Source: Schmidtea polychroa
Lineage: Eukaryota
Length of the DNA stretch: 64,000 nucleotides
Reading direction: 5' to 3'
NCBI GenBank assembly: GCA_044892525.1
Contig: CM097885.1
Location: 214,148,001 to 214,212,000, forward strand
Shown here: positions 17,501 through 45,338 of the stretch, piece after piece
Position numbering within the stretch: position 1 is the first letter of the stretch
Layout: each line of letters opens with the position of its first letter
The notes under the pieces: generated by a model
What the model saw: the letters and a program-made list of their open reading frames with translations, nothing else
Database searches by the model: none
What the model was told of the DNA's origin: nothing
Translations under genes and position numbers: made by a program

Positions 17501-18776
17501 GAAGGCAATCATCTCTGCCGCCGTTCTTGCATCGTCGTGAGGGACCGTTTGACTCGTCTTTCACAAAATCAACATTTAATATACAATTTATGAATAATAA
17601 AATGAATGAATGAATCAAATAGTAGCAAATGAATCAGTAAAAATAAATGGATCAATAAAGCTCACCCGGCGACCCTATCATTTGGACTCCAAGTATGATG
17701 TTATTCATTCCACACAACCGCAGCCTCATCATAACCTTGGTAGATCTCTCACATGATAAATATCCTTCTCTGCAAATATCACATCCTCATTTTCAGCATC
17801 TTCGGGATTTCTTATGAGGGTCAACCTTCCCACTGTTGTGTTCTCTGCCGTGGTACATTTCCAACTCATCCACATCATACTGGGAGCTCTCAGATGGTAC
17901 AGTCGCCGGCACCATGAAGAAAAGGCCATTTGTATTTCAATAAATTTATTTTACGAAATGAGTTTTGTCTTTCATCATTAATAAATTAACTAATACATAT
18001 AAATCAATCGGCCTACCGATAGTTTCAAAAACTGGAACGAAATCGAGTTTAAACTGGTTTCAAATTAATTGAAGGTAAATTCTGAAAATCTCTCGAATTA
18101 GCGTTTGCGATTCTAGTCCTGAATTCGGTGAAATATCTGAAGTCTATGCTCTGTAATCGTGAAAAATTAAAAGTGGTTTTAAGTTTTTCTAAAATTTACC
18201 TGTAATCGTGAAAAATTAAAAGTGGTTGTCGTCTAATTTTTCACGTTACATATATAGTATTTTTCGTCCAATCAGGACGCTACCTGCTTGTATTTTTACT
18301 ATTTATTATTATTTTTCTGTTTTTTATTATAATATATTAGATTTTTAATGACTTAACTTATTTCTTATTATTATTTTATTTATTTTCCTATTTTTATTAT
18401 TTTCCTCCTATTTTTCTTGTAGGTTTATTGCTACTTTATTGTAATATAATTTTTTTGTTTTAATTAGACTTAAAGATAGTTTTATTTTTTATTTATTTCT
18501 TAAATTTCTCTTTTATTTGTTGTCACTTTTTTACTTATTCTATTCTATTTCATCTGCTGGGTCCTAAATCGCTTTATTTCCAAATCTCAAGGGGTTTATT
18601 GGATTTTATTTAGTTTGTTTACTTATTCTTATTCTTTTATTGATATTTTATTGTTCCTTTTTGATTTATTAGCGAGAATTTGATGGTACTTTATTTTTTT
18701 ATTTTATTTCGTTTATTTTTCAAAGATTACTTTTCTATTCGCTCCAGTTTTCGAAACTCCACGTTTTAGCCCAACA
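14593..18776 (-). repeat. 3' LTR (4,184 bp)
   Basis: TGTTGG...CCAACA; direct repeat of 41155..45338 at offset 26,562. Confidence 0.97.
15133..15897 (-). CDS. LTR-encoded 254-aa protein (CxxC, coiled coil, basic NLS-like stretch), 3' LTR copy
   Basis: ATG-started ORF, identical protein in both LTRs; amino-acid-level conservation with the decayed homolog at 60381..61143. Confidence 0.75.
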   Translation of the reverse strand: MNTSTSSGKTLRPCFSCADKNADIAQLHLYIGELKKRIDLYEGTWFSPPQMKEEKSKILRLEHCRDSLLEESRCQRLTIKAQSEALHKVYSESELAKRVREYPIQDGTNVFPMHHKLAETSSTSSCKGHGPQMPPIPAPVLSGHRPMAGGSSDPILAPVLVPHLLQSPAEATFPHRKRKRLTRSEKNQKRRNAMAALEASLSVAKATIKEITVTHSIPTKEVFRVVPAGSIKFLEDRRLPVDIDEMLAEGEAFS

Positions 18777-19643: not shown

Positions 19644-19698
19644 ACTACTATACGAAAATTTTTATTTACAATTATTTACATTGATCATTCATCTTTAA

Positions 19699-21831: not shown

Positions 21832-23220
21832 CTACTCAGTCCTACTCTTCCCATCACGCCTCACCGCTATTTTTATGTATATAGTGTCGTTTCTCGTCAT
21901 GTCTTCTACTTTCCGCTGTAGGATGAAATTTGGTGCTCCAGTTGCTGGTCCTTCTTCTTCCAAGGGCCTTTGGTAACATACGAGGTTTCCCGCTGTATGG
22001 AAACTCTGTTCGTGTATACTTTGATAGTTCATCATTGCAAGGTCTATTTTTGCTTTGAATGGCCATTCTATTAACTCGTCGTATGGCCCTTTGCACATCA
22101 AGAAGAATACTGAGAAATGCGTTCCGTATGCACTTCCATCCCCATTGGGGTATGCTTTCATTTTCATTTTATACCCGTTTTTCCATGAGTAGAATGCTGG
22201 ACTTAGTAATGTTGTATCCTTTCCATTTCTCGCTCTCTGCATCTTCTCTTTTATTCCCGTTATTTTCCATATGTACGGAGCCGTTGGTATTAATTCGTTG
22301 AGGTTTAATTCGCTTACTTTTTGATGTAGTTCTTTCACCATAATATTGCTAGTTTCTACTAGATCTGTCTGTATCTTTGTACTTGTTCTCGCCTCTTCAA
22401 ATGCTTCCTTTTCTTCCAATAGTTCTTTTACCAACGCTTTTAGCGAGACTATTTCTCTTTCTAAGTTTTCGGTTTTCCTTTCGTTTTCCTGTACAACCGT
22501 TGACCATATTTCCGCGTGTGTTGATACGTTTTCTGCTAGGTGTTGGGGTAATTCTCCTCGGTGTAATTGTTTCGGACATCCCCATTTTCCTAGCACACAC
22601 GTTATCTTTTTTCTTTCACACTCTTTTAGATGTTGAGCGAGTTTTATTACTCCGGGTTTATCGCATTTGTTGGGACATTCTCCTCTGAATTCTGCGCACA
22701 CTTTCTCCTCTTGTATGTTGTGATGTTGACTGATTAGTTTCTTCCAGGTGTCGTTTTCTCCGCAATACTCGCATTTCTCTAGTCTTTCTTCGCATCGACT
22801 TTGATGTTCTGCTTCTTCATTGACTTTAATCTCTTCTTGGCAACGTTTGCATTGACTGATTTTATACTCACATTGCTCCGTATGTTGCCTCACTTCCCAT
22901 ATCACTCCTCGCCAATTACATGGGGTGTTTTTACATCCTAGGTTTGCATTCAACATATCTTTTACAGCTGCTTTATCTTCGTTTGTATCTCCCAAACTTG
23001 TTATCATTGTTTCTTTGCATACTGGGCACCATTGTGGTCCCTTCTTTATTATCTCCTCTACACATTCTCTGCACATTCTGCATCCACATCTGGTTTGGTG
23101 AGGTTCTCTTAATAAGCTCTTGCATATTCCACACGTTACATGGTTGTGTATTCGAATTGTGGTGGACTTTCTGATTTGTTCAACAATTTCTCTGAATTCT
23201 TCTCGTTGTCGCTTATCCAT
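21832..23220 (-). CDS. TRAF-family protein (RING, TRAF zinc fingers, coiled coil, MATH), intronless, 462 aa
   Basis: RING CGIC...CGCRMCREC...CPVC; TRAF Zn fingers (C..NTPCNW...H...C); MATH motifs YIWKI, SPAFYS..NGYKMKMKAYPNGDG..GTHFSVF, GPYDELIEWPF. Confidence 0.95.
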   Translation of the reverse strand: MDKRQREEFREIVEQIRKSTTIRIHNHVTCGICKSLLREPHQTRCGCRMCRECVEEIIKKGPQWCPVCKETMITSLGDTNEDKAAVKDMLNANLGCKNTPCNWRGVIWEVRQHTEQCEYKISQCKRCQEEIKVNEEAEHQSRCEERLEKCEYCGENDTWKKLISQHHNIQEEKVCAEFRGECPNKCDKPGVIKLAQHLKECERKKITCVLGKWGCPKQLHRGELPQHLAENVSTHAEIWSTVVQENERKTENLEREIVSLKALVKELLEEKEAFEEARTSTKIQTDLVETSNIMVKELHQKVSELNLNELIPTAPYIWKITGIKEKMQRARNGKDTTLLSPAFYSWKNGYKMKMKAYPNGDGSAYGTHFSVFFLMCKGPYDELIEWPFKAKIDLAMMNYQSIHEQSFHTAGNLVCYQRPLEEEGPATGAPNFILQRKVEDMTRNDTIYIKIAVRRDGKSRTE

Positions 23221-23309
23221 TTCTATAATTATATATATACATATATTCGTTACTGGTACAGTTTCGTATTTTTATTTACATTTATTTACATTGCTATTTT
23301 AGGTTATAT

Positions 23310-23669: not shown

Positions 23670-23837
23670 TCTTAATTTATATATACTTTTCAATCCTTAT
23701 CTAATTTTATTTTCATATTAATTATCCCCATCATTATATACTATTGATACCGCGCTTATATAAAAATATAGAATACTGTTATATAAATAAATATTTCCTA
23801 CTTACTTTTTACAATCTATATACAGTCATAATCCTTT

Positions 23838-26800
23838 CTATATACGTGAGCTTGGAGGGCGCTGAGCATTCCAGGCCTCCACCCACTGTTCCTGCTTGAT
23901 ATTACTTGGTCGTTTTACACGATGTTGAAAATTTCTTATTCTGGCCATTTCTAGTTCTCCGTGATGCCGTCTATCTTTGATTATTTTTATTGTCCCCCCC
24001 GTTATGATTAAAAAGGCCCCTGTTATTATTATGCCGCTGATCCACATCATCTGTTTTATGCTTATAATTTCCGCTTTTTCCTTGCTCGTTATTGTTGATA
24101 TTGCTTCTGTGCTTTTTAGATTACCGTCTTTGCCATTTCCTTTCATCATTCCTCGTATTCTTGCTATTTCCTCGTTCATACCTTCCTTTGCCATTTTTTG
24201 TATTTTCTCCATCTCCTCCTCGGATACATAATTGTCTTGATGTTTCTCACTGTTTTTCTTGCGTTTTCCTTGCTCATCTTTTTCATCATCGATTTTTCTT
24301 TTCTTTCCTCTTTTCCCAGGGTATCGTCGACATTCTCTCGCTGTATCTTTTCTCCAGATGCATATTGTGTATTCTTTTGGAGGTTGTTGCTGTATTACAT
24401 ATTGTAGACAGTCTTCACCCGGTCTTAATCTTGCGATGCAGACTTTGTGTTCTTTTCTTGGCTGGAGTTGCGTTATCACTACCTCACCTCCTTTTCCCAG
24501 GTGTACCTCCTTCCCTTTGACTTTCGTTATTCTCTTCCCTTCTCGATTTCGGTATGCTTCTTGTATTCTTACTTCCGTTATTGGTTCTGCATCTTCATTT
24601 TTTAACACTAGTCTCTGATAAGCTCTAGACATACATCTTCCTAATATACACCTTTCTTTTAAATCCCATTCTTCTTTTAGATCCCATTGCTGCTCTTGTA
24701 CTTGTTTTTTCTTTTCTTGTTTTAGTTCTTCCTCTTTGTTGTCCTTATTTTCCGTTTCTTTGGCTTCTTTTATCGTTCTCATTCCTCCCTGGGCTGTTAT
24801 CATTTCCACCATTGTTAGTACGAGTATCATTATCATCATATTTGTCTCCATTTCTTTGTTGGTAAAAAGTAGGCATACCCTCTGTTTTCCACTATTCGTC
24901 TTTTCTTCTTGCTTCATTCGGTTTCTCGGGTTATTTTCCTCTTTTTTCCTACTCGCGTCGTTATTTTCTTGATTATTCTCCTCTGATTTCTCTTTCTCTT
25001 TATTCCCGTTTCGACCTTTTTCATTATTATCGTCGTCTTTATCGTCTTTATCGTCTTTATCTCCCCCGCTATCGTTTAAAATGTCGTCCTCGACATTTAT
25101 ATCATTCAACAATCTGCGGTATGCCGTTAGCACTCTGTTTCTTGCTAATTTTGCTTCGAGTTCGAACTCCTTTCTGCCTGTTGCTACATGTCTCTTTCTA
25201 TTCCATTCTTTCACTAATTCTCTTAATTGTATCCGACGATGTTTCCCGATTCGCTTTTGTTCGTTTAGATTCTGCGTGAATTTGAGATCTTCCCTGTTTA
25301 ATACGATCATTATGATTTTCGGAGTTCCTCCTTTTGTTAGTGTATTTTTAACCATAGCATTTTCTCCGTTTTCGTAGAACTCATTTATGTTTATTGCATA
25401 TTTATTGCTTTGTGGTATTCTCCATGTTAGCAGCAACTTCATGGCTTCTAAGTTCATCCGTATCGTGTTCCATTGGAACTGTGACGTGTTTTTACAGATA
25501 TTTTCTGCCTCAGTTCTTGTAGCATTTTTACAAATGAATCTAATCATTTCCAAGTTTGGTTGTATTGTTGCCCAATCCATGGTAGAATTTCCTTCGTTTG
25601 ATATTTCGTCAAGTCTCGAACCTGATTGATGTAGTATATGTAATGTTTTCGGGTGTATATTTGTTATGGCTGCATACATCATTGCTGTTTCCCCTTGTTC
25701 ATTTTTTGCATTAGATTCTTCTCCGAAGTCTCTAAGGATTCTTATGATGGTTATTGCTCTGTTCTCTTTTGCTGCTAAAATGGCTTGTTGTAATGGTGTT
25801 CTTGAGTCTTTTGTTGGTAAGGTGAATGCTAGTGGTATAAATGTTTTTATTTTTCCTATGTCTAGATTTGTGGTCTGATCTCTTGCGTAGGTGTGTACTG
25901 TCTTGGTTATTTTTGCTAGTATCGCTTCATCGGATAGATCTTGCATTTCTTCAAAGAATACTTCTTTAGCCTTACGTACTACTATCTCTTGGTCGGAGTT
26001 TATTGTCTTTGGTTTACTTGTTGTTGCTATATCGGTTATTGGTTGCTCGACTTGTTCCTCAGACTTTCTTGTTTTTACTTTCTTCATTTTTATCTTTTTC
26101 TTGTTCGAACTGTTAATGCGTTCCTCTGCCGTTAGAACTTGAATAATACTTAGGTAGTTTTCTCGAATGTTGTTCATAGTTTCCATCATATGTAAAACAC
26201 TCACGGTGTCCCAAAATTTTACTTGTACTTTATCGGTAAATTGAGATATAGCTTTTTCGAAGTTGGTAATTCGTTTTCTGATTAGTTGTTCGTCTTTGTG
26301 ATTTGAGAATTTTATGCCTCGTTGTAGTAGTTGATTTGGAATTTCGAATAGGTGATGTCCTCTCATTGCTTCTCTCATCAAGGTATTTTCTCCTTTGGTA
26401 AATGTTTCGTTTATATCCACCATATAATCGTTTTTTATCGGGTTCCTCCATGCAATTAGTATTCCAGTAATTGTTGTTAATTTCTCTTTGATTGCAGTAA
26501 ATAGCCCGTCATACATGTTTCCTATCTCTCTATTATCCTCGTATGATATTAGATCTACTAAGATTATGAAGGCTTCCGTACTTTTCCCTTCGATTGCATG
26601 ATGTAATGCATTTTTCTGGTTGTGATCTTGTGTGGTTATCCTTGACCCAGTTTCAAGTAATGCGATGATAATATCTTTAGCTTTATCCCGATTGGCTGCT
26701 ATCATTAGTGGGGTGTAACCTTGGTTGTTTTCTTGATCTGTCGAAATGTTACAATCGCGAAATGCTTCAATTGTTTCTAATATCTGTTCGTTACTACCCA

Positions 26801-29800
26801 CCTTTAAAAGCTTGTGCAGGGGTGTGTCTCCGTAATGGTCTGTGATCGTGAATAATATAGGCCATTGACTTTTAACTACCCTGAGCAATGGGTGTGTTCT
26901 TTCTCGGTTTGCATAATTTTCGATCATTGTTAGCAGACCTCCCAATATCTCAAAATCTAATCTGTCTTCTGCCCATCCGGGCATTTTAACTTTTACTTCC
27001 TTTATGATTTTCTCGGCTTCTGATGGTTGTAACCCTAATCGATTACCTGTTGGTTCGTTTATTTGCTGTAACATGTTTATTCTATACGTTTGTGATCTTG
27101 TCGTTAGTGTACGTCCTTCTGGCTGACTGGTGGCGGTTTTCGGAATTGGCTTACATCGTGCAACATTTACATATATTGGCCTTGTAAAAGGGTTGTTCAC
27201 TAATCGTACTCTTACATTAGTTTCTCCGACGAATAGAATCTCATACGGCCCTTTACCGTTTCGTTGTAATTTTTTGGTGGTTCCTGGAATTAATTCTGGT
27301 GTTTCAATCATCACCCAATCGCCTGTTTGAAACGTATGCTGTTTGACGTTTTTCTTTCTATCATGTAACTCTTTGTAACTTTCTTGATAAAATTTTATAT
27401 TCAATCCTGCGGTTTCCCAGATTTCCTGCATTCTTTCCTTGAACTTGGTTACATAATCGTCTATTTCCATGTACTGTGATATCGGTGGCTGATATTCTAA
27501 ATCCATTGGCATATTGCATTCTCTGCCGTACATCAACTTGAACGGACTCATCTTTGTGGACGCGTGAATCGACATTCTGTAAGCCATGAGGCATAATTTT
27601 ATATATTCATCCCAGTCTCGTTGATGACGATCGACATAATTTGATAACATTTGAATCAGTGTTCCATTGAATCTTTCTGTCATACCATTAGTTTGTGGAT
27701 GGTACGGTGATGTTCTTAATTTTGCGATCTTGAAGTAGTTGGTGACTTCGCTCATTATTTCGCTCATGAAATTCGTTCCTTGATCCGTCAGTATTTGTTT
27801 CGGCGTTCCATATCGACAACATATTTCCTCTACCAATATTTTTGCGATTGTTCTTGCTTTCTGATCTGCCATTGCGAATGCTTCGGGGAATTTTGTCAAA
27901 TAATCTGTGATTACTAATATATATATATTTCCTCTATCTGATTCTGGTAGTGGACCGACTACGTCCATTGATATCATTGTCATTGGTTCTGCTGGCACTG
28001 GCATTGGCTTTAATGGTGCCTTCCATTTTGTTCCCGTGTTTTTTCTGGTTGCGCAAGTTATGCAATTTTTCACCCATTCCGTTACATCCTCGGTCAATGT
28101 AGGCCAAAAATATTTTTGTTTCATTCGTGCCAACGTCTTTTTAGATGACATATGTCCTCCGAGTCTTCCGTCATGGTATTGTGTTAGTAGATCTTTACGT
28201 CTATTCTCGGGAATGCACATCAGTCTTTTCTCGCCATCCATTATCAATAACCAATCTTTCTCGATAATATATCGATGTCGATGTTTATCCATATGCTCCT
28301 TCAATTTTTGATCTTTCTCATATACCTCTGCTTTCCCTGTTTTCACATATTCAATGATTTGCTTCAACTCTGTATCCTCTTGTTGGTCTTTCCGTAATTG
28401 GCAAAAATCTAAATCTTCTGCTACCATCAGACATATTCGTTGCATTTCGTGATCTACTAAATCTGGAAAGATAAATCTGGACATACAATCCGCATTGGCA
28501 TTCGCTCTTCCCGCTTTGAATTTTATGAACGGTGAATATTCTTGTAACTGCATTGCCCATCGCATCAATCTACTTGAAGCTTCTTTGTGTTGACCAAGCC
28601 ATACTAATGGTTGATGATCCGTGGTGATACATATTTCGTGTCCCCATAACAAATATCGAAAATGTTTAATTGCTTGTATGATTGCTAACGCTTCTCTCTC
28701 GGTTACGGAATAGTTTTTCTCGTGCTTTTTAAACGTTCTACTGTAGTATCCAATCACTCTTTCTTTTCCTTCTTCATCCAGTTGTCCTAATATTGCTCCG
28801 GCTGCATATCCACTTGCATCTGTTGCTAATAGGAACGGTTTCTTGAAATCAGGGTGTACTAGTATTGGGGCTTCAATTAATTTATCTCGCAATGTCTCAA
28901 ACGCTTTTTGTTGTTCTGCACCCCAAATAAATGAAATATCCTTTTTCACTAATTCCTGTATTGGTTTCGCAATACCTGCATAGTTTTTGATGAATTTTCG
29001 ATAATATCCGCATAATCCGAGAAATTCTTGAACTTGGGTGACAGTTTTTGGTGCTGGACATGTTTTTATTTTTTCTATGTTCCTTGGATCTGGTTCTTTG
29101 CCTTTTGCTGACACTATGTGTCCTAAGAACGTAACCTTTTCTTTTGCCCAATCACATTTGGATGGTTTAAGTTTCAGTTTCCATTGTCGTAATCGAACGA
29201 ACACATTTCTGATATCTTCCAAATGTTGTTCGAATGTTGCTGAATATATTAATAAATCATCAATATATACCATACACTGCTTGATCCCGTGTGTGACAAA
29301 ATTCATACATCTCTGGAATGATGCTGGGGCGTTGGTCAGTCCGAACGGCATTTTCCTGAATTGGTATAGATCTCGGCCCAATGTGAATGCTGTTTTCTCT
29401 TTGTCTTCCTCCTTGACTTTGATCTGCCAATATCCGCTTTTCAGATCTAAAGATGTAAAATATGCGGCCCCCTGTAACATAAGTAACATCTCATTGATGT
29501 CTGGTAACGGGTATGTGTCTCTTTTTGTTACTGCATTTAATTTCCGATAATCGATACAGAATCTCTGAGTACCGTCTTTTTTCTTCACCATGACTACTGG
29601 AAATTGCCATGGTGAGCAACTTGGTTCGATCACTTGTGCATCTAGCATTTTTTGTACTTCTGCTTCGGCTATCTCTTTTTGCTTCTCTGCTAGTTTGTAT
29701 GGGCGTAGTGCGATTGGAGTTTCGTCTATTAATGGTATTGCGTGTAATGTAACATCGCATGCTCCCAAATCTAAATCCGAAATTGCGAATATATCTTTAT

Positions 29801-32800
29801 ATTCTATCAATAATTGTTGAAGTCTCTCCTTCTCTTTTTCCGTTAGCAAGGTGCTGTCAATTATCCATAATTCGTCAGCTTTCGTTGTTTCGTTGATGAT
29901 TTTTGGTAATTCGATGTCTATCATGGGTGTCAATCTACCCAATCTTTCATTTTCATATATGATCTTGTCTTCTTCCTCAAAATTTGTGATGTTAATTGGT
30001 ATTTCCCCGTCTTCATTTATTGTTATTATTTCTCTTGCTAATGGTAATTCTCGTCGTTTTTCGAATGATTTGCTTGGCTCAAAAATGACTTCTCCTTCCA
30101 TTCCTGCATCCACTTTTATTTGACATATCATCTGTGATTTTGCGGGTACAATTATTTTCTCCGGGCATCTAATTATTGCGTTCATCTTGCATATTCTACC
30201 CATTTTGTCTTTTAGACACATTGTTGTTAAATCGATTACTACTTCCTTAAATAATTCCGGCATTAAATCCGTTCCGATTATACATGGTTCACTCAGTTTG
30301 GGTATCACCGCTAGATACGTTTCAATTTCGTTATCCTGATATCGTAACGTAGTCCACCATCTTCCTACTACGTCTACGGTTTCTTTACTGCATGCAATAA
30401 TATGGATAGTTGTTTGTTCGATATCCTTCCAACATTTACTGGGTATTTGGTTTATTGCTATTGCTGATACGTTTGCTCCGGTATCTATCATGGCGCTTGT
30501 CTCTTTCCCGTTGATTTGGATCATGACTGTTACTGCCGCACCTCCTGGTGAACTCATCACTGCTATCGTTCTTACGTCGTCCGCTTGGTCTACACTTTTC
30601 GTTCTTCGGGTCGGCATATAGTTCATTCCTGGTTGACTTGGTAACTGTGGATACATATTTTGTGTCATGGTCAAAGCTGTTTGTTGTCCAACGATATCTG
30701 GTGGTATGTAACTTCCGTTGGCTATCCAGGTATTTGTTTTTTCTTTCTCCCAATATGGTGCTGTTTCTATTGGCTTTTCATTCGGGTTTCTACTTGGATA
30801 TGGGTATTTGTCATTCCCGTTGTCGTCATCATCACTATCGCTGCTGTTTGATCGATTCCTAAATCTGTCTAAGAATTTTGGTTTGTTCTTTTTCAGTTGC
30901 GTCCTTGTTGCTTCATCATACATCGTTTTCCGAAATCGTCTACCGACTTCCTCGTCAGTTCCTTTTATTTTTGTCAGTATTTTGATCAATCGTTTTATTC
31001 TGTGTATGTCTTTAGAATGACCGTGCAACACCATTGTTTTCGCCAAAAATGGTAGAAAGCCTACTATCAATTTCCAATTTACCTTCTTTTCTCTCTTATA
31101 GATATCAAAACACGCTAACATTTGAGTTAATATTACTCTGACGATCTGAATAATTAAGATGATTCCCAATATTCCTGCCATCATTTGACCGAACACTAGA
31201 AATCTTCCCCACATTGCTTTCATCATGTTTGACGTGGCTTGTTGAAAATGATCAGGTGACAATAATAGTTCGTAATTGGGGCCTGACTGGAAATTCGTTC
31301 CCCCAGTTATGGTAACCATATTCGATAGAATGGATTCCCGTCTTGCTGGGAATAATACGTTTAATCGTGCCGTTTCTAAATCCTCCGGTGAGTACATACC
31401 TGCTTTTGACACATCAATTGGTTTGAAATCTTGTTCTGTTGCGAGTTCTATTAGTCCAAACTTTTTAGGTTCTTGTACTTCGGTTTTTACCGGTAACATT
31501 ATCCATTTCCCATCGGGTTTTTCATATAACGGTCCGTATGCATTTGAACAGTTAAAGGTGTTCGGGTAAAATCCAATTGGGTTCATTATTCGAGTGACGG
31601 GTTGAACGAATCTGTTTCGCCCTTTGTAACTAATTTCTAACTCGTTTGCACATTTCCCTGGTGGAATCGTGGGCTTTCTTGGCAGTCGCGCAAATGTCTT
31701 GGTACATGCATATGTATACATTACCTCTCCCACCATTCTACCAAAATGTCCATCCGGTAACGGGAGTGATGGCATTGTGTTATCTGGGTGTGTTATTGCG
31801 ATGGCTAATTTTGTTTTTAGTATCTCTTTATTCAATGAACAGTCATTTTGTATAAGATCGTAATACACTTTTTGCATTGTCGTTTGTCCTCGGTGAAATA
31901 AAAAGTCCATTTTGTTATTGGCGTACAGGTACAATTTTACGTCCTCTGTTGCTACCTTTCCCACTGCTCGGTCTATTACTTGCCTGGACATGTAGATACC
32001 TGCGTAGTTCGTCCGGTATACTATGCTGTCACATTTGGTGGTCTCTTTTTCTCTAATGAATCTCATGCCGATATCTGGGTCATCTGTAATTAATGCCGTT
32101 GGTGTTTTTTGGGTTGTGAGTCTCTTTTCTTTGGGGGATGGCGGAACTGGTTTCCCATTTCGCATCCTTACGTTTCCATTCTCTTCATCGTCATCCTCGT
32201 TTTCGTAAATTTCTCCTTTTACTTCATTGAATAGAGCACTTTTTAACAATTGGAGTCGGCATTTTTGGGTGTTAGCTTCATATATTATAGTCGAAATTCC
32301 CGTTCTACACACGTTTTCCGTAGCTCTGCATGCTGGGTTGGTTTTCATTTGATAGTTGTTCGCGTCGAATTGTGCTTCGTATTCCTTCAACTCCACTGTG
32401 TAGGACTCAATTACTACTACTCCCGATATCACCTCTCCTCTGATCGTATATGTGCCTCCGTTACATGATCCATCAGTTGATTTTACTCGTCCAGCGACAT
32501 AGATACTTTCTGTCTTGATCATTCCGCTTTGTCCGTGTATTGTTACTCCATCCCTGATTCTCATTGCTCCGGTTCTAAAAAGCTCTTTACAGTCTTCCCG
32601 TTGTATAGGTACTATTTCTTTATCTAATCCCGGTAATATAAGGGTTGAATATGAGTATTGTCCACAGTAATATGCCAACACTTTCTTTGATACTACGCAT
32701 TCTCTAGCTTGCGTTCTAATGAAATCTGATTCTTGGTATACGTGATAGGAGACTTTCTTCTTTACTATATCTAATTTATTCGGAGACGCCTGTCTACATT

Positions 32801-35800
32801 CCTCTATATCTCTCAGGGAGTATCTTTCTCCTATTATCGAATTGTCACAGTCGTAAATAGTAAATCCCGCGGCTCCACTGGTGCAGAGCATCCATATCAT
32901 CATGGTCATCATTAGTGAATTAATCGACGCTTTTCTGCTGGCTGGGTCTTTCAATGGCAATTCCCATTCTAGCTCATGTAGTAACTTCTTCAACCGAATT
33001 TGCATTGATCTCTCTTGCTCGTTTTTTCGTGGCGCTTGTATGAGTCTTTTCCACCCACCGGCGCGGATGATATGTGGTTCGATTGTATTTTCAATGATTG
33101 TGACGGTCATTTCTACATGATTTGCGAATTGTTTGTTAGGTATTTTCCTTGCTGCTAATCCCATCAAATTGTACATTAGATACGTTAATACTACTAAATG
33201 ATGTTCGTCGTCGTTTGCGTTTAAAGTTAATTGTTCAATTACTCTTCTTGTCTCTTCCCAATCGGTTTTAGTGGTTTTTGTCTTCTCTTTGATTAATTTC
33301 GGAATTATTCCGGATATTGTATTCCATAGTTGTCTGGCGTCTACGCTTGCTACTTTTCGTTGCCATAACCGTCGCAATTGTGGGTTCGTTATTATTAGCA
33401 TATCTTTTACTAGCTCTCGTATCCATTTTTCGCCTCTTTCGATAGTTGGCTGGGCCTCTTTTAGATCCCACACTATTTTATCCAGTTTCTCTAATCTGAC
33501 TTGTCCTTGTTCTTGTTTCAGTTGTTCTCTAGTTTTAAATTCCGGTTTTTCTCCTTGCTTCTTGGGTCTCCCTTTTGCCCGTTTTTCCATCATTGTTCCG
33601 GCTTCCCTTGTATTTTCATAATTCGGGTTTCTCTCGTTATCCGTTCTTGGCAATGAGCTATCGTTATTTCTTAGCCATTCGTTCCATTCGTCTATTATTT
33701 TGTCCGTTTGACCTTCTGGTGTTGCTTTCGTTGGTCCTTTCTGTCGTTGGAATTGTTCGTCGGTTTCGGTTTCTGTTGTATTATCGATAATCTCCTCGAT
33801 ACTCAGCTTATTTGGCTGCTGATAGCTAGTTGACGGTTGGCTTGTTGTCCATATTTCGGCTCCTGTCGGCCATCTTACCAGAATTGGTGATCTTTCTCCA
33901 GCTCCTTCATCGCTGTCTTCCAATATAATTTCCTCGATTTCCTCGGTTTCATTCGTTTTACTTGCCACTTTGTTAGGGCTTGGTGTACTCAAGCTACCTT
34001 TCGTAGGTTTACTGGATGTGTTCTTCCTTTTAATCGGTTTTCCCAATGTTTCTACCATTGTCAATACATTGATCTCCCCCAATCTCATGGGTGTTATTCC
34101 GACATCTGCATTATCATCCAACGATTTTCCGAATAGTTGTAGGTGAAACGGAGTTTCGTATGCTAATTTCTTTTTTAACTCTCTGATCTTTGTTGTTGGA
34201 TGTACTTCTGTATCCTCAATGCTTTTGTCGGGATACTTGACTCGGATACGATACCTTTCCTGGGTATCTTGTGCCCATTCTTGGTTTCTCCATTTCCTAA
34301 TAATTTGTTCTAGCTGTTCTGGGTACCATTCGTTATATTGTCTGTATTCCTCAATCGCTTTCGCCATTTCTCTTAGATTGTGGATATTCTCTGATGTCTT
34401 TAGGATGATGTTAGCCAATGCTATTACTTGACGTTTTTGATTTTTTGTTCCCGTTGCTAAGATATCACCTAATTGTTTATATCTTTCCTTCTCTTCTCGT
34501 TCTCGAGCTTCCATCGCTTCTTCGCTATCCATATCGGCATATTCGCGTTCTTTCTTTCTCATCGCATGAATATGTCTGGTTTCCGTTTCACTTTCTGATG
34601 TAACATCCGTTTCGCTTCCGTCGTCCGATGTCGATTCTATTTCGTCCTCTTCGTATTTTGGAGGTTCATCTTCCTCTTCTTCTGATTCACTTTCTATCTC
34701 ACCAATGTCTGTTTCCACGAAAATCCCTTTCCTGATTTTCCATTCTTTGTTTTCCGCATTCCACGTCCTTTCCCATGGGGTTCGTCTGCAGGATCTCACA
34801 CTTAGTTTCTTTATTTTTCCTTGAAGCTCTTTTTCTTTTAACCACTGTTGATGAATTTCAATTATCTCTACTGATTTTTGATATAGCGTTTTCATCCTGT
34901 CTCGTATTTCTTTCTGGTATGTTATATCTCTTGTTCGGAATTCGTCCATGGGCAATATTCTGATGATTTGATGATTATCCCACATTCCCATTTCGCTTAG
35001 CGAGGTGTCGTCTTCGGCCCGTAATATTATTTTATCGTACATCATGACTACGTCATCTATCATCCCGTCGCTACTCTCGCTTCGTACTTTTTCCGTTATC
35101 TCTTGGTTTATCTTGGTTACTAAGTCATCTACCGTACTCTGATTACTCATCTTTATTCGTCGTTTCTCCTCGTTTGGTAACCATATGGTTATTTCTAATT
35201 TCTGCGGTTGCGTTTCTTTCAACCTGCCATATTTGTGGATCAAATTTATGGTTCTCCAATCGCTCATCCTGAGCAATTCTGTATCTCGTAATCGGCTCAT
35301 TAGCTCATGCATGTCTGGAGTTCGTCTTGCTATGAGTAAATCCCAGTTATCTTCGACTTGTTCTTGAATTTGTTTGATTAATTTATCTAGATTTCGTCGC
35401 AAGGTGCATTGTTTTATTTGTTCCAGCTTCAGCTTGATGTTAAAATCGTATTCGGCCTTGGCGTCTTTAGCCCATTCGTGAATATTTGCTGGTTGTTTCT
35501 CTTTATACAATTTCAATATTTGAGTTTCTCCTGGCCAGATCAATGCATCTATTAGGTGCATGTCTGGTTTGATTTGTTCTCCTTGATATTGATACAGATA
35601 TTCTTTCTTTCTCGAGCTGCCCAAATGTTCTCTTATCCAATCGAAAAGGTCGTCTGTGACTGCATTTTTTATCCATATTCTCTCGAGTCCTTTACTCGTT
35701 CCGATTTTTATTACATAGCGTGTTGTCTCCGCTTGTTTCATTTTTTCCATATACTTCTTTATTATCACTTTTTCCTCGTTTGGTATTAGGTCTTTTTCGT

Positions 35801-38273
35801 TTCTTTCTAGTTTCATTATCTTTTGTATGAAGCGTCGGTATGGTATGATGTCAATGAATTCCTGGTTTCTTACCACCACTGGAAGTATTTCCTTTACTTG
35901 TTTTATCGCTTCTTCTCTTTCTTTTCTCAATTTCATTTCGATATTCTCGTCTTCGCTTTCGCTTGTCACGTCGCTTTCTCTTTCATCTTCATCTGCTCCA
36001 ATCTTTTCTCTTAGTTGGTCGATATTTTCATTTAACTGTAACATTTCTCCACCAAGGCTACTCACATAATCCTCATCGTCATCTGTTGACAACACCTTCT
36101 TTGTTGTCCTCATCATATTAATTCGTAAATTTCTCATTCTTGGTACTTTCTTTAACTTGTTGTTCTCGAGTATCGTTAGTTCCTCTGAGTCTAATTCTCG
36201 TATCATATTATGCTTTAGATGATTAATCTGTTTTTCATTTTCGTTATTTTCTGCTTCTGCTTCTGTTTTTGTTTGCTCATTTTCTCTTTCGATTTTATCT
36301 TTTATCTTTTTCCAAAATATTTTCTGAATTCTCTGATTTCCTTTTAGTGGTGTTGTTGAATTTTCCTTTTTTGCTGCTGTAATTGTTTCTTTCGGTTTCT
36401 CTGGTTCGCTCATAGGTACAACTCTTGGATTTTTACCGTAATTGTAACAATATTGCTCCTTTATCTCCTTTACCATCCTCATCATATTTATTCGTAGTGG
36501 TTGTTCTTGTCGCTGCTGAATTCGCTCTCTTTTTATCCTTTCTTCTTCAGCTTGTAGTCTTTGCCATTCTTGTGCATGTTGTTGCACTTCATAATTGTTA
36601 AGATTCTCGGTGCTTCTCATCATGCGTATATTCTGGGTTGGTTGTGGTACTTGCTCTTGTCTCGGTCTCATCATTTGTTGCATCATCTGCTTCATTTGTG
36701 AAATTTCTTGCATCACATTCATTTGCTTTCCCTCACTAGGATTACTTTGTCGTTGCGGATTTGGTGCATAGTTATTATTTCGCTGTGGTGGTCGTTGCTG
36801 TTGGCTCCTTTCTCGACAGTCTCTTGAGATATGACCTAGTTGCCCGCAGTTAAAACATCCTCTTGATTGGCATATATTTTCCGTGTGTCCTCGTCGTCCA
36901 CACCTATTGCAATTTGCGTTTCGGTAACAATCTCTATCCCAATGTCCTGGTTTACCGCATGTTCGGCATTGTTTGTTATCGTTTATATTTCGTCGATTAT
37001 TAAAGTTGTTCCCATTGTTTGAGTTGTTGCGTTCACTGTTATTCCCGTTTGATCGTCCTTGTGGTGGTTTGAAAATTTGATGCGCACCTGGTATAAACTG
37101 ATTCATCTTTGGTTCATGATTATTGTTATCTCCATTTTCCGTTTTCACCGCTGCTGTTGCGATTCTTCCCTCCTCTTGCATGACGTTCATTTGTGCTGGG
37201 AGGTGTAGTTCGCATCTTGTGGCCCAATCTATGGCTTCTTCTAGTGTTTTACACATTTGACATCCCACCGAGGCCCTTACCTCTTCTCGGCGTAGTCCTT
37301 CTATGAAGTAACCCATTAAATTTTCCTCCGGCAAGTTTCCGTTCATGGCCTTCTTTGCCAATCTTCGCAATTCACTTGCGTATAACGTAATTGACTCGTT
37401 TGCTCTTTGTTTTCTACTTGCCAGTTCACCTAACGCTTGATTTATTGGTTTGCTGGCTCCGAATGTTTTTCTCAAAAATGTTTTGATGTTTTCCCAATTG
37501 TCTAATTTCGTATTTCTTTCTTTTGCTTCCAGATATACTTCGAGTGCGCTATCGCACAAAAACAGAGGCATTCGTTTACTAATTGCTTCGGGTGTCCATC
37601 CACACACATCGATATAGACTTCAAAGTTGGTTATGAACGTTGCCAACTTGTTCGCATTCCCGTTGAATGGTTCGCCTCTAAATTTTTCCTTATACTCGTC
37701 AGTTTTTACCACATTCATCTTAATTGGTTCTTGAAACTCTATTATTTCTTTTAAATTTTCCAGCGATGTAGCTAAGCTATGGACGGATAATTCTTCTGTT
37801 GACCCGGTTAGGTTGTTGGTTATATCGGATAGACTTTCTCTACTTCTAGATCGGCTGGGCGTATGTCCGGCTGTGGGGTTTTCTTGATCGTATATCGGTG
37901 TTTTGTGGGGTCTTTTTGCTCCTTGTGATATTCCTCTCTGCTGCCTAAATGATCGTCCTCTTTTGAGTTGATCTAATTCGTCTCCTGAAAATAATACGTC
38001 TCCTGGCTTACTTGAAGATCTAAGGTTGGGTTTATCCGTGATTTTCCTTTTACTCTTTTCTGTCTTTTCACGTGGATTTTCTACGGTTAGCGTCTGCTGA
38101 ATTGGTCGAGTTCGGTTTTGATATTGTCTTCCTTTGTGCGGGTTCTGAATTGCTTTTCCTGGGTTGTTTGTATATTCTCTGGATTCCTCTTGAGCTGGTT
38201 CTGAATTGACTTGGTTGGATGGATGTCTACAATGAAAATATGATATCGTGTTGCCTTTGCTTACACGAATCAA
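23838..38273 (-). CDS. Single Gag-Ubl-Bcl2-Env-PR-RT-RH-IN-Ank-TM polyprotein (4,811 open codons; first in-frame ATG at 37718)
   Basis: 14.4-kb frame with no stop; recognisable CCHC, DTG, YIDD, TDAS, HHCC, D-D-E, GPY and ankyrin motifs. Confidence 0.97.
   Translation of the reverse strand: [4811 protein letters not shown]
25540..26845 (-). other. Two clusters of ankyrin repeats (within polyprotein)
   Basis: [67 protein letters not shown]. Confidence 0.88.
27130..28420 (-). other. Integrase (HHCC, DDE, GPY/F) (within polyprotein)
   Basis: YHDGRLGGH...CITC; MDVVGPL...TDQGTNF...ERFNGTL; GPYEI. Confidence 0.97.
28480..29720 (-). other. Reverse transcriptase and RNase H (within polyprotein)
   Basis: RPYKL, [76 protein letters not shown]. 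Confidence 0.98.
30190..30555 (-). other. Aspartic protease (within polyprotein)
   Basis: [23 protein letters not shown] ... CIIGTDLM. Confidence 0.95.
31020..32918 (-). other. Env-like glycoprotein (chuvirus G / gB-type class III fusogen): signal peptide, ~550-aa ectodomain, TM (within polyprotein)
   Basis: Hydrophobic [18 protein letters not shown] then FTIYDC; 14 ectodomain Cys; [53 protein letters not shown]. Confidence 0.8.
33040..33440 (-). other. Bcl-2-like domain (within polyprotein)
   Basis: [16 protein letters not shown] resembles BH2 (HLEPWIQENGGWDTFV) with Bcl-2-like helix spacing upstream; BH1 NWGR is not retained. Confidence 0.55.
34050..35725 (-). other. Three ubiquitin-like domains (~35500-35725, ~34945-35205, ~34050-34260; within polyprotein)
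   Basis: Best copy [46 protein letters not shown] aligns by eye to ubiquitin [44 protein letters not shown]. Confidence 0.6.
36815..37718 (-). other. Gag capsid-like domain plus three CCHC zinc knuckles (within polyprotein)
   Basis: [16 protein letters not shown]...Q..[18 protein letters not shown]...FIEGL; [42 protein letters not shown]. Confidence 0.92.
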
Positions 38274-38939
38274 TCATTCCTTTTTGCCACATTCAAGCAC
38301 AGACACCGTTTTAGGGCCTCTGTTATATTTTTCTTCATTTCCCCTCATACACTTCTTCGCAGAATATAATTACCCATCAACCCATATTTTTCGTCGATTT
38401 TAAATTATCTATTTGGGGTAGTAACAATTATCTATATAGTCGTATAAATTATCTATAGTTAGCATTTATAATATCGATAGGTCGTTGTCAGTTACTGCCT
38501 ATTACCTCCCATATTTTCTTAATCCTTTTACGCGGTTCCGCTATTTTACTTAATCTTTCATCTCTGTTTCCCCTTATTTGGTTCTACTCTGTAACCAAAA
38601 CAAAATTCGTTTAACCGGTTTAAACCAAAAAAATTCTGTAGAACTTTGTCTACTTGTCTGGGATCCCTTTTTTAATTAATTAATCACCTTCCTCTTTTAC
38701 TCATCACTTATTCTTTATTTTCATTATCTCTTTAATTCATTTTCCTTTTCCGTTTCTCTTTCCCACTGAAAAAAATTTCATTATTACTTCTCACGAGCTC
38801 GTTTAATCCTTTCTAAATTCAAATACCATATTTCAAACTCACTTTGCTTCTAGCTAGCTTTAATATTCCATCTCACTAGTAATTTAAATGTTATCAACTT
38901 GTAGCTTGAATGCTATCTCACTATTACTTTAGGCCTTTA

Positions 38940-39615: not shown

Positions 39616-40197
39616 TAAACTCTGCATGCTTCCGTTCCTTTTTGTCTTTATTCTATACTGTCATCTTCCTATTTTTACTTTTATTTGTCGACTTAATCTG
39701 TACCGCTTTGGAAGGTTTCCCCTTTCCCCCCTTGCTTAAAACGCAAAACGATCGCATTGATCCATTTCTGCATTGGTATGGTGATCAGCCATACCGCAGA
39801 AACTTTTCAATATTCGCGATGGTACCTCGCCTTACATCTCTTACTCGGGGTGATCGGTTATCCCCTCCCGAACGGTTTTTCAATTATCGTACCTCCCGAA
39901 GGTGGCTCGGTTTATTCCCCCTTTAATCTTATGTTGGGACTAGCTCCACTTTATGTACTCGATTTAAATTTTAAAATACCCTTTCTTCATGGTGAAAATT
40001 ATGATACAACAGATCAAATTATAGCTTCGCAAAATGAAATAAACACACCAAAATGATTTATTGATTATTCAGTCCATGCTACATATGATATATGATACCC
40101 TTATTAAAATATTAATGAATCAAATCAAAAAAAATTAAAATATTTTAGTTTAATTGTTCAACCATCCAATTTCTCTCACCGAGCGACGATCACGTAC

Positions 40198-40677
40198 CTA
40201 ACTGAAGTAGATTGTGTGCTTCTCTTTTATTACACATGTGCACATAGAACACCGGATTAAACTGGCGGCGCATTCGTCACAATGGCTAAGGTGCCCACAA
40301 GGTAGAATCAGAATTTTGACAGGTCGCATCTTGCAAATGTTACAAGTTCTCAAGGCCGCTGCTTTCTCTACTATTGATGTTCGTATCCGCTGAGACAGAG
40401 TTTTGACTCGTTCGCGTATCCTCACATATTCGATGTTCAGCGCTGGGTCGTCGAGACGTTGCTGAAACCATTGGTAATGAATCGACAAGTCGGTATCGGT
40501 ATTCGTTGATCCTAATCTGTCGGTTAGAAAGTTTTGTTTGGATATCAGCGGTGCGTCGTGGCTTTGTTGTTCTAGCAGTTCTATTTGTTTCAGTTTTTCC
40601 CTTAATGTTTTTATTGAATCATTTTCTATTTCGACGAACCGGCTTAGCTGTTGTAGATGTTGTCTAGCGTCTGACAT
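40198..40677 (-). CDS. 159-aa coiled-coil plus IAP-type C-terminal RING protein (no BIR)
   Basis: CNICKMRPVKILILPCGHLSHCDECAASLIRCSMCTCVIKEKHTIYFS*; RING at the extreme C-terminus ending in an aromatic tail as in IAPs. Confidence 0.88.
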   Translation of the reverse strand: MSDARQHLQQLSRFVEIENDSIKTLREKLKQIELLEQQSHDAPLISKQNFLTDRLGSTNTDTDLSIHYQWFQQRLDDPALNIEYVRIRERVKTLSQRIRTSIVEKAAALRTCNICKMRPVKILILPCGHLSHCDECAASLIRCSMCTCVIKEKHTIYFS

Positions 40678-41129
40678 ATCTAAATGAATGTGTTGTTATT
40701 ATTTGTTCTTACTAGTATTAGCAATAATATTATTACGTTGTATTTAATATTCGTTTCTCTTTTATTTGTTATTGTTTCTAGCTTTCGTATTTTATTTAGT
40801 CTTTTTAACAATCCCCGTCGTATTTTTGACTTTAATCTTTTAATTTTATTGTCATTACTTTCTTTTGTCTCCCCTTTTTAATTTAATAAATTAAAATTAA
40901 ACAAAGTAACTAATTCCCGTTTCCTTCTCTCATCATACTCTATCATATACATTCATACTCATTTAGGTTCATCTTTATTCATACATGCTCTATTTTCAGT
41001 TCGTATCATCATTCTATTGTATTACGATATCGATTCGTTTCAGTCCCGATTCCATTTTTAATCATAATTAATTAAATTGTTAATCTAACACATCATAACA
41101 CAATAATAGGTAATCAACAAATCGAATTC

Positions 41130-41147
41130 ATCCCGGCTGAGCCCCCA
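41130..41147 (-). promoter_or_regulatory. Primer-binding site, tRNA-Pro type, 7 nt inside the 5' LTR end
   Basis: Minus strand TGGGGGCTCAGCCGGGAT; 16/18 identical to the MLV tRNA-Pro PBS TGGGGGCTCGTCCGGGAT. Confidence 0.88.
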
Positions 41148-41694
41148 AAAATCGTGTTGGCGTATGTGGGGGAAAAAAAAATATATAGGCATGATTATCA
41201 TACACATCGGGTGTCATTATTCTACTCAGATCATTCCCTCACGCACTCCAAATGATCATTCGCATATTCCCACATATGAGCCCGTGGTGATGTTCCACGT
41301 TGGTACTGCTCACACGGGTTGGGAAGAGTTAGCAGGTGAGCCCCTGCCTTAGGACTACTCCTAACCCTTTCTCGGTTCGGGTTCTACGGTGCCATAGAAG
41401 GTCTTACCCATTCTTTACGCATCATTCGGTCCGACCCTGGTCCAAAGGGTACGACATTTAAGTTTCTACTATATTTTCGTGATCCTTCTCTCATGCAATT
41501 CAACCGTAGCAAGTCATACATACAATTTACACAATCAAAGAAAAATCGAACAGTTATATTAGAACGGAACATCAAACTACATTCAATATTGTTTAAATAA
41601 ATACAAAAAAACATTAAAGATTAGTCACGAGATAACGTCGCTTCTTCGAGTTCGTTAGTAATAGCAGGGGAATCGAGACCCGAGAGAGAATTGG

Positions 41695-42459
41695 CTACGA
41701 GAATGCTTCTCCTTCTGCGAGCATCTCGTCGATGTCAACGGGCAACCGGCGGTCTTCGAGGAATTTAATACTGCCGGCCGGAACTACCCGGAATACTTCC
41801 TTTGTAGGAATGGAATGGGTAACTGTAATTTCCTTGATAGTTGCTTTGGCCACAGATAACGATGCTTCGAGCGCGGCCATGGCATTTCTACGCTTCTGAT
41901 TTTTTTCAGAACGCGTCAGCCGCTTACGCTTTCGATGGGGAAATGTAGCTTCTGCTGGGGACTGAAGGAGGTGTGGCACGAGTACTGGAGCCAAGATAGG
42001 GTCCGATGAACCGCCAGCCATAGGTCGATGGCCCGAAAGAACTGGGGCGGGAATTGGCGGCATTTGTGGGCCATGCCCTTTACAACTGGATGTTGATGAG
42101 GTTTCAGCTAATTTGTGGTGCATTGGGAACACGTTAGTCCCATCTTGTATCGGGTACTCGCGAACTCGCTTCGCTAGTTCTGATTCGGAATACACCTTGT
42201 GCAGTGCCTCTGATTGGGCCTTTATGGTTAGCCTCTGGCACCTGCTTTCTTCCAGGAGACTGTCACGGCAGTGCTCCAAACGCAGAATCTTGCTCTTCTC
42301 CTCCTTCATTTGTGGTGGGGAGAACCACGTTCCCTCATAGAGGTCAATTCTCTTCTTCAATTCCCCGATGTACAAGTGGAGCTGTGCGATATCGGCATTT
42401 TTATCAGCACAGGAGAAGCAAGGTCTGAGGGTTTTCCCGGAACTGGTTGAGGTATTCAT
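41695..42459 (-). CDS. LTR-encoded 254-aa protein, 5' LTR copy
   Basis: Same protein as 15133..15897; one synonymous substitution noticed (15196 A vs 41758 G). Confidence 0.75.
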   Translation of the reverse strand: MNTSTSSGKTLRPCFSCADKNADIAQLHLYIGELKKRIDLYEGTWFSPPQMKEEKSKILRLEHCRDSLLEESRCQRLTIKAQSEALHKVYSESELAKRVREYPIQDGTNVFPMHHKLAETSSTSSCKGHGPQMPPIPAPVLSGHRPMAGGSSDPILAPVLVPHLLQSPAEATFPHRKRKRLTRSEKNQKRRNAMAALEASLSVAKATIKEITVTHSIPTKEVFRVVPAGSIKFLEDRRLPVDIDEMLAEGEAFS

Positions 42460-44811
42460 CTAAATCGTTAAGGAATTGTTATTTTTAAATTAAAAATTTA
42501 CTGGGGTATTATTCATATTTTCGGAAAACGAAATGTAAGATTTCCCCGACCAAGTTATCCAAGAGTGGCCTACCAATCTACCCCGTCGGCAATTACCCAC
42601 CTTCATACAATCTCAAACATCCAAACTAACCCATGTAATCATTACTACTTTATGAGAAGAAAACGGGATTCATGAAAACAATTCATTATGCTAGCTTTTA
42701 GGTATACTTTTTGGGTTTGACTATCTTCAACTACTGCATGACTGTTACTTCGTTACTATGAACGCTATTATCTTAATTATCGTTATTACATTTTAACAAT
42801 TATATTTTACTCATTTTGCTGCTACGTCGTTAGATTCTACGCGTGCTATATGATGAACGGAAAATCGGCAATTACCGGGACACCCCGTCTTGTATGTAGA
42901 CCCCTCGGGTTTGTAAGAAAATCATAATACCCTCGCTTAAATTGTTATCATGGATTATAATTTAGTTATTTCAATTTAACGCCATAAACATCGTCATAGT
43001 GACGCTTAAATCGGGCGCAGTTATGTGTTCATTTGCTTGTCTATCTATACCGTCAACTATCGACGGGTTCGTTACGATGCATGTTGGTGCATTTAACTAG
43101 CGACTTGCACACTGACACAAAAAATTTCTCGTCGCATCGCCATGTTCTCTGACGCAATCCAGTGGTCTACTAGCCGATACAAGTTTACGACTCTCTCCCT
43201 ATGATTAGGTAATGATGATATCCACATGTGCACTGTGACCTAATCTGAGTGTGATGCATGCGTACATGTGGGCGAGCGATTAATAGAGGTAGAGTTGTAG
43301 AGAGATGCTCTAGTTGAGACGGGTACTCAGTTGGTGTGTCCAAAACTCAAGAAATTCGATTGTGTGGGTGACTTGCGGATTCAGTAGATAAAAATTACTC
43401 TATATTCTGGATTTTCGATATTAGGTCGACTCACGATAAGACCACTCAATACACTCGATCGACTGCCGCCTTCTCAATCAACTCGTTCGATGACTTTATC
43501 AAATTATCAGCCGATTTTCCCCGTCGGAAACTTATCTGGCCATGGGCAACTAATGATTCTCCTATCGCTATTGATATCTTCACTCGGACTCACGGCAAGT
43601 GATTTATTTCCTTATCAAAAAATTTGTTTACTTTCCCCTTTTAGACGAGCCGCTGTCAACGTCAAACCAAACTTTATCAGATATTCAATGTCAAGCTAAA
43701 GTCTAAATTAGTAAATGAATGGGTTTACTCGCTAGTGTCCCGGCAATGTACCTCTCGGGGTTCAATTTTTAAGTGCTTAGCGGATCTTCCAGTGAAAACT
43801 CTAACAATTCATCGCCCATCCCTACTCAGACATCTATCAATATTCGACGGAAAAGCAAATTTTCCTAACAACAACGAACTACTGATCTCAATCCGAAAAA
43901 TTGTCTCCGACTTTGGAAATTTACATTATTTATTCTGGAACTTCAGCGTGACTTCATAAAAGAAAACGAAAGATCCTCTATCAGATCGCGCTCGATGTGA
44001 GAAATTTTACTTTCAACAGTATTCCACCTGCGGAGTCTCCTCACCCCTCATGACCCACCCAAGAAGGCAATCATCTCTGCCGCCGTTCTTGCATCGTCGT
44101 GAGGGACCGTTTGACTCGTCTTTCACAAAATCAACATTTAATATACAATTTATGAATAATAAAATGAATGAATGAATCAAATAGTAGCAAATGAATCAGT
44201 AAAAATAAATGGATCAATAAAGCTCACCCGGCGACCCTATCATTTGGACTCCAAGTATGATGTTATTCATTCCACACAACCGCAGCCTCATCATAACCTT
44301 GGTAGATCTCTCACATGATAAATATCCTTCTCTGCAAATATCACATCCTCATTTTCAGCATCTTCGGGATTTCTTATGAGGGTCAACCTTCCCACTGTTG
44401 TGTTCTCTGCCGTGGTACATTTCCAACTCATCCACATCATACTGGGAGCTCTCAGATGGTACAGTCGCCGGCACCATGAAGAAAAGGCCATTTGTATTTC
44501 AATAAATTTATTTTACGAAATGAGTTTTGTCTTTCATCATTAATAAATTAACTAATACATATAAATCAATCGGCCTACCGATAGTTTCAAAAACTGGAAC
44601 GAAATCGAGTTTAAACTGGTTTCAAATTAATTGAAGGTAAATTCTGAAAATCTCTCGAATTAGCGTTTGCGATTCTAGTCCTGAATTCGGTGAAATATCT
44701 GAAGTCTATGCTCTGTAATCGTGAAAAATTAAAAGTGGTTTTAAGTTTTTCTAAAATTTACCTGTAATCGTGAAAAATTAAAAGTGGTTGTCGTCTAATT
44801 TTTCACGTTAC

Positions 44812-44834
44812 ATATATAGTATTTTTCGTCCAAT
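44812..44834 (-). promoter_or_regulatory. Putative LTR core promoter (ATTGG/CCAAT box plus TATA); copy at 18250..18272
   Basis: CCTGATTGGACGAAAAATACTATATAT; same blocks conserved in the diverged LTR at 57422..57458 (CCTGATTGGA...GACGAAAATACTATAAAT). Confidence 0.6.
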
Positions 44835-45338
44835 CAGGACGCTACCTGCTTGTATTTTTACTATTTATTATTATTTTTCTGTTTTTTATTATAATATATT
44901 AGATTTTTAATGACTTAACTTATTTCTTATTATTATTTTATTTATTTTCCTATTTTTATTATTTTCCTCCTATTTTTCTTGTAGGTTTATTGCTACTTTA
45001 TTGTAATATAATTTTTTTGTTTTAATTAGACTTAAAGATAGTTTTATTTTTTATTTATTTCTTAAATTTCTCTTTTATTTGTTGTCACTTTTTTACTTAT
45101 TCTATTCTATTTCATCTGCTGGGTCCTAAATCGCTTTATTTCCAAATCTCAAGGGGTTTATTGGATTTTATTTAGTTTGTTTACTTATTCTTATTCTTTT
45201 ATTGATATTTTATTGTTCCTTTTTGATTTATTAGCGAGAATTTGATGGTACTTTATTTTTTTATTTTATTTCGTTTATTTTTCAAAGATTACTTTTCTAT
45301 TCGCTCCAGTTTTCGAAACTCCACGTTTTAGCCCAACA

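Follow-up and report, generated by a model that had tools for sequence, protein, structure and literature searches.

A diverged Bcl-2-fold domain predicted ahead of the Env signal in the polyprotein of a Burro-type retroelement of Schmidtea polychroa

The window, as we call the whole 64,000-nucleotide stretch of the planarian Schmidtea polychroa analysed here, contains a 30.7-kb Ty3/gypsy LTR element of Burro type on its minus strand (positions 14593-45338), with the following main parts:

14593..18776, minus strand: 3' LTR of 4,184 bp, with TG...CA ends and a TTGG target-site duplication at the flanks
21832..23271, minus strand: TRAF-like accessory ORF with RING, TRAF zinc finger and MATH
23838..38273, minus strand: gag-env-pol frame, a single open frame of 4,811 codons
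31095..32864, minus strand: Env glycoprotein (Pfam Monjiviricetes_fusion, E 6.7e-72)
31128-31184, minus strand: Env transmembrane helix, within the glycoprotein
40198..40695, minus strand: RING accessory ORF, with a C3HC4 RING at its end
41130..41147, minus strand: primer-binding site, complementary to the 3' end of tRNA-Pro(TGG)
41155..45338, minus strand: 5' LTR

The 99.93% identity of the two LTRs, together with their TG...CA ends, the target-site duplication and the tRNA-Pro primer site, indicates a young element. The long frame begins with Gag, in which Pfam sees three zinc knuckles, and passes through the Bcl-2 domain to Env, protease, RT, RNase H and integrase, with ankyrin repeats besides; the Bcl-2 domain itself is below the Pfam cut-off. 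The RING accessory ORF is presumably IAP-like, judging by its motif, and a BIR domain was not matched by Pfam in any of the eight window proteins scanned. More accessory ORFs at 19008-21618 and 23310-23696 (minus strand) have no confident Pfam family, several of them looking like coiled coils, and each LTR contains a 254-codon ORF (15133-15897 and 41695-42459, minus strand). An 80-bp tandem array occupies 38937-39697, in the leader that separates gag from the RING ORF. The first ATG of the frame is preceded by 185 open codons (37719-38273, minus strand), and since the relative P0004 starts with Met well upstream, translation may begin at a codon other than ATG, or a leader may be spliced on. 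A tRNA-Pro(TGG) fitting the primer site lies elsewhere in the genome within a 475-bp tandem array (L114, G000:C1:130.90-130.95 Mb), and its 3' motif has 1,555 exact genome matches. Outside the element, an exon at 4612-5142 (minus strand) resembles, as we take it, a GCM DNA-binding domain and probably belongs to a host gene.

Giant gypsy-like LTR retroelements of planarians are known as Burro or GYPSM1 (Jurka, 2007; Grohme et al., 2018, both per PMC6431247), and a BCL2-like motif has been noted in Burro-2, -3 and -4, with env lying in the same frame, after BCL2 and ahead of the protease (PMC6431247). The domain and its place before env are therefore already published for Burro elements. The window element shares with that description a size above 30 kb, one ORF1 of about 4,800 aa, three CCHC knuckles, the BCL2-like motif, env between BCL2 and protease, ankyrin repeats and TRAF/MATH, and, set against Burro-2, -3 and -4 by their descriptions, it is of Burro type. 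Burro1/GYPSM1, however, has MATH inside ORF1 together with a BIR, whereas MATH lies here in a separate downstream ORF. It is another family of the genome, L077 (with L078), that fits the description of Burro1, having MATH in ORF1 and a BIR nearby, and as its RT is 92% identical to that of the window, we regard the window element as a sister family and not as Burro1. The identity to L077/L078 changes from 35-47% in the Bcl-2 domain and the N-terminal half of Env to 74% in the C-terminal half of Env and the 92% of the RT, a jump that suggests recombination between families. In the literature we found only PMC6431247 to name the motif, with no fold test, topology or function given there, and found no functional test or anchor proposal, though Grohme 2018 and Lee 2026 may say more. 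The gene order of the window element is also that of the GAG-ENV-POL errantiviruses of Platyhelminthes with HSV/gB-type Env, as presented in the available parts of PMC13524379. A 10-residue Env stretch of Smed_errantivirus_1 from that source is common to our family L105, and the six Smed elements listed in its available parts span 14.5-18 kb against 30.7 kb in the window. The main text of PMC13524379 does not contain the string 'Bcl', which occurs a single time across seven supplement files, in an assembly name, and supplement 3 gave no match to two Env motifs of the window, although gaps could hide them there.

A previous sequence-only reading proposed a Bcl-2-like domain in front of Env, and the peptides that it quoted do lie where it placed them, on the minus strand and in one open frame. 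The domain and its surroundings can be described as follows:

33033..33443, minus strand: Bcl-2-fold domain, polyprotein residues about 1611-1747, delimited by profile, model and fold matching
33396-33425, minus strand: alpha1 of the domain, WIRELVKDML
33228-33257, minus strand: peptide EETRRVIEQL, in the 4,811-codon frame
33201-33212, minus strand: BH1 position of the domain, reading DDEH
33165-33200, minus strand: peptide HLVVLTYLMYNL, in the same frame
33051-33089, minus strand: peptide NTIEPHIIRAGGW, in the same frame; BH2 of the domain, ending in AGGW
33444..33584, minus strand: N-terminal extension, outside the Bcl-2 superposition
33558-33584, minus strand: GRPK motif within the extension

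The N-terminal extension is predicted at low confidence (pLDDT 57-58) to form an additional amphipathic helix, and its GRPK motif is, we assume, AT-hook-like. The extra helix (33462-33497 on the minus strand of the window; L051:5845-5868 in a related family) could fill the groove of its own domain and has what we take to be a BH3-like spacing (LDKIVWDL in the window, LRDIANNM in L051).

When searched alone, the window domain is weak. It matches Pfam Bcl-2 (PF00452) at E 0.021-0.027 and 15.5-15.8 bits, under the gathering cut-off of 31.4 bits; phmmer against the PDB returned no Bcl-2 match for it but a single unrelated one, and for the domain of L051 only Bcl-xL at E 1.8; word-indexed homolog searches gave 0, 1 and 0 matches; and the ESM Atlas returned no Bcl-2 cluster, its best score of 0.86 falling to no Pfam family. 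A model of the single sequence (pLDDT 54) had no Bcl-2 match by Foldseek or VIA-align and was dropped as a poor model. Taken by themselves, these results would suit an accidental likeness, the domain being an ordinary helical bundle that happens to have a GGW motif. Relatives were gathered because of this weakness: L051 was found through a Pfam Bcl-2 search and four families by routes blind to Bcl-2, namely L073 and L075 via Env, L077 via BIR and L105 via L075. Loci without the Bcl-2/Env junction (L057, L076, L079-L081) were not used, and copies broken by stops were left out of the alignments A1 and A2. Taken individually, eight of the ten aligned element domains match Pfam Bcl-2, at best with E 8e-7. 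Profiles built from element domains, with cellular rows absent, match Bcl-xL at E 5e-4 and, over alpha4-alpha8, at 1.3e-4, and in both searches all 60 among the matches listed are Bcl-2/Bcl-xL. Against 1.84 billion representatives the profile matched 12 proteins, five of which carry the domain, a signal and Env, one is linked to Gag and ends before Env, four are short fragments and two are cellular Bcl-2 proteins. With profile, fold and reciprocal library searches in agreement, a chance resemblance is largely refuted and may be regarded as extremely improbable.

The fold itself was predicted with an alignment-guided model from 17 element-only rows (pLDDT 80.6, pTM 0.75). By VIA-align its best match reaches Z 13.8 (rmsd 2.7, 135 residues aligned) in a comparison in which helical bundles may score up to Z near 13 by chance; Bcl-2-fold structures fill ranks 1-35 of the best 50, and no unrelated row scores above Z 6.3. 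Foldseek against the PDB listed Bcl-2 family matches throughout (probability 1.00, TM 0.63/0.72), although no row reached E 0.001, the best being 3.5e-3, and in a viral structure library the top named rows are mostly viral Bcl-2 proteins. Structure prediction, the check proposed along with the original reading, thus recovers the Bcl-2 bundle, and the likeness is seen by profile as well as by fold. The alignment to alpha4-BH2 alone proved too narrow, since the model matches the Bcl-2 fold across residues 28-164 (33033-33443), that is, over the full helical bundle. We consider it confirmed, at the level of sequence profiles and a predicted model, that the stretch encodes a real, diverged Bcl-2-fold domain.

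With Bcl-2-family proteins the window domain shares the whole-domain fold (Z 13-13.8 at 12-13% identity) and BH2; it differs from them in the loss of NWGR, in being embedded in a polyprotein and in an anchor that would derive from a cleaved ER signal. BH2, for which the pattern W(I)xxxGGW was sought, reads HIIRAGGW in the window, the first Trp being replaced by His, and its GGW is nearly invariant across element domains. BH1 had been called divergent, and indeed the canonical NWGR is missing, N-W-G-R being D-D-E-H in the window. Across 16 element or presumed-element domains the Trp of BH1 is kept in none, the Gly in one and the Arg/Lys in 12, the window domain being one of the four lacking the latter. 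Both the Gly and the Arg of NWGR matter for BH3 binding according to the portion available of PMC9027176; vaccinia N1, lacking NWGR and having acidic residues in place of GR, still blocks apoptosis (PMC2885619, in its accessible part). Any binding of pro-death proteins by the window domain would therefore be non-canonical, in the manner of poxviral Bcl-2 proteins.

The poxviral Bcl-2-fold proteins A52, B14 and K7 inhibit innate immune signalling, and the element may have reused the fold for the same end, without BH3 binding. The loss of the BH1 Trp and Gly across the clade would suit such a role, as would the TRAF, RING and ankyrin cargo of the same element and the presence of A52, B14 and A46 among the structural matches (Z 9.0, 7.0 and 6.7). 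However, the best matches (Z 11.5-13.8) come from cellular pro-survival proteins and from viral proteins that bind BH3, and the GGW of BH2 has hardly changed, so that we think this role unlikely.

At least 150 copies of the domain are present in the genome at 93-100% identity, and 144 of the 150 scored have no stop within it. Contigs from three runs, taken to be RNA by guess only, covered 30, 19 and 9 of 30 bins and were not used as evidence. A comparison of the window subfamily with L060 shows 93% amino-acid identity in the domain while 64.2 of 88.0 synonymous sites have changed, giving a dN of 0.045 and a dN/dS of about 0.02, similar to the protease; elsewhere in the polyprotein dN/dS is 0.01-0.09 (acidic linker 0.06, Env 0.05). 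As the rest of the polyprotein is similarly constrained, selection demonstrates that the domain is used, but not for what. Between element families the identity of the domain is 16-30%. A tree of 27 rows places every one of the 16 element domains on one side of a well-supported branch (99/96), which is consistent with a single capture. Closest to them among the host rows is a divergent subfamily comprising L032, L043 and P0015, which a 93/91 branch (not starred) sets apart from the remaining host rows; in this unrooted tree it is no more than a candidate donor.

Host-type Bcl-2-like genes of this divergent kind, which possess a C-terminal hydrophobic tail of their own (L032, L036-L050), are scattered through the genome in dozens of near-identical copies. 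One family of them has an intron and another has none, and the dispersal suggests that they are being moved by some mobile element. A host-type Bcl-2-like exon is also found within the window, 4 kb outside the element (10395-10660, minus strand), where BH1 reads NWTR followed by a GT intron start; it is 33-41% identical to the multi-copy host-type genes, and its second exon was not located. At a further locus (L110:9532-9639), a host gene of the Bax/Bak-like type includes a BH3 exon with the sequence IGKKLASIADTL.

Downstream of the domain, the path to Env is marked by two features:

32931..33032, minus strand: linker from the domain to the signal, with basic residues (SRK) at its end
32865..32930, minus strand: predicted internal Env signal peptide and putative anchor (KD19 1.40), with a putative cleavage behind it

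BH2 is followed by about 40 residues, a basic patch, an uncharged run of 26 residues (about 32856-32930), small residues and FTIYDC, before which signal peptidase would be expected to cut; the signal was called from these sequence features. The domain had been described as standing immediately before the Env signal, and while a signal-like segment and then Env do follow, 'immediately' applies only approximately, given the roughly 40 residues after BH2. In three host-type genes the corresponding linker measures 18-25 residues. The window domain lacks a stop-terminated tail, and, unlike the three host-type tails, its signal-like segment has no basic residues behind it. The segment is weakly hydrophobic in the window, where KD19 is 1.40, against 1.27-1.35 in the two closest relatives and 1.96-2.43 in four more distant families, and a comparable hydrophobic segment occurs in all 13 element proteins in which Env follows (8, and 5 from outside). 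The Bcl-2/signal/Env junction is found in the window family and in L051, L073, L075, L077 and L105, the distance from BH2 to the YDC of Env being 45-73 residues in these six families of the genome and 50-79 in the five outside proteins, and its position is fixed even in smaller families with frames of 3,053-3,437 codons. Layout and conservation agree in making it plausible that the Env signal is left as the C-terminal anchor of the domain. A segment leading Env into the secretory pathway would, though, put the domain at the cytosolic face of the ER and not at mitochondria.

That the domain keeps so constant a place ahead of the Env signal in every family examined, smaller ones included, might also mean that it serves the particle, as a cytosolic leader of Env through which the Gag precursor is tied to the ER membrane, in the way of the capsid anchors of flaviviruses and hepaciviruses. 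The universal loss of the BH1 Trp would fit such a leader, and a precedent exists in HCV core, which is held by the envelope signal and later released by signal-peptide peptidase (PMC5402940, in the text available). Yet the full bundle and BH2 have been kept at 16-30% identity between families, beyond the needs of a tether, and a protease-like site upstream would part the domain from Gag; for these reasons such a service to the particle seems improbable to us. The site in question is the following:

34062..34076, minus strand: EINVL, last good upstream match to the protease motif, at residue 1401, a putative cleavage site

The motif [IM]N[MV][MLV], which we read as the site of the element's protease and which was defined only after inspection of the sequence, is seen seven times where shuffles would give 0.38, most of these occurrences lying near borders of domains, and when family L077 is scored with a matrix derived from the window, five protease-like sites take its top ranks. 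Where the signal begins, matrices crossed between families rank INSL in the window at 20 of 4,803 and MNAI in L077 at 19 of 1,978. These candidates bear on the persistence of the anchor, which, whatever the function of the domain, might be transient, a soluble domain being freed by the element protease at the start of the signal or by signal-peptide peptidase; by analogy with HCV core, the anchor may be removed after membrane insertion. INSL and MNAI resemble the protease motif, but their scores of 4.4 and 3.1 lie far below the 10-23 of clear sites, their ranks fall to 88 and 41 once every training site is included, and in the remaining four families nothing at the corresponding position fits the strict motif. 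We consider a transient anchor somewhat less likely than not, but a possibility to be taken seriously.

The topology that we propose starts from the hydrophobic segment acting as an internal signal, so that Gag and the Bcl-2 domain would remain cytosolic, Env would pass into the lumen, and Pol would be back on the cytosolic side beyond the Env transmembrane helix. Cleavage by signal peptidase would fall before FTIYDC and that by the element protease near residue 1402, leaving an ER-anchored product of about 400 residues that would consist of the acidic linker, the GRPK motif, the Bcl-2 domain and the anchor. Cut free and left at the cytosolic ER face by the Env signal, the domain would help to keep the host cell alive during particle making, a role to which we assign an even chance. 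Such a pro-survival role is favoured by the TRAF, RING and ankyrin modules, by a report, second-hand in the available part of PMC13465017, that the captured IAP of the sister element Burro1 protects stem cells, and by vaccinia N1, which does without NWGR; the loss here of both the Gly and the Arg of NWGR counts against it. More tentatively, and with distinctly less confidence, the history may be read as one capture of a host Bcl-2 by an ancestral flatworm GAG-ENV-POL element, possibly from the divergent multi-copy subfamily, in which the tail anchor became the Env signal, a single hydrophobic segment from then on both directing Env to the ER and parking a working pro-survival Bcl-2 there in the cell that produces the particles.

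What is new here is modest: the confirmation of the domain at the level of the fold, strong purifying selection and a specific topology proposal, together with the recognition that the domain, instead of being cargo of giant elements, belongs to the element clade as a whole as an old, fixed module. Like the viral Bcl-2 proteins A179L, BHRF1, KsBcl-2, N1, M11L, F1L and A52, it is a captured fold with eroded BH motifs; those, however, are stand-alone genes of large DNA viruses, to which the viral Bcl-2 proteins reviewed in the accessible part of PMC11209288 belong, whereas the window domain sits in the polyprotein of a reverse-transcribing element. If the capture reading is true, a reverse-transcribing virus would here have a viral Bcl-2 that functions. 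If the pro-survival role holds, an enveloped retrotransposon of a regenerating animal would possess a working viral Bcl-2 that pairs with the IAP reported for Burro1, and these elements would control host cell death at two levels.
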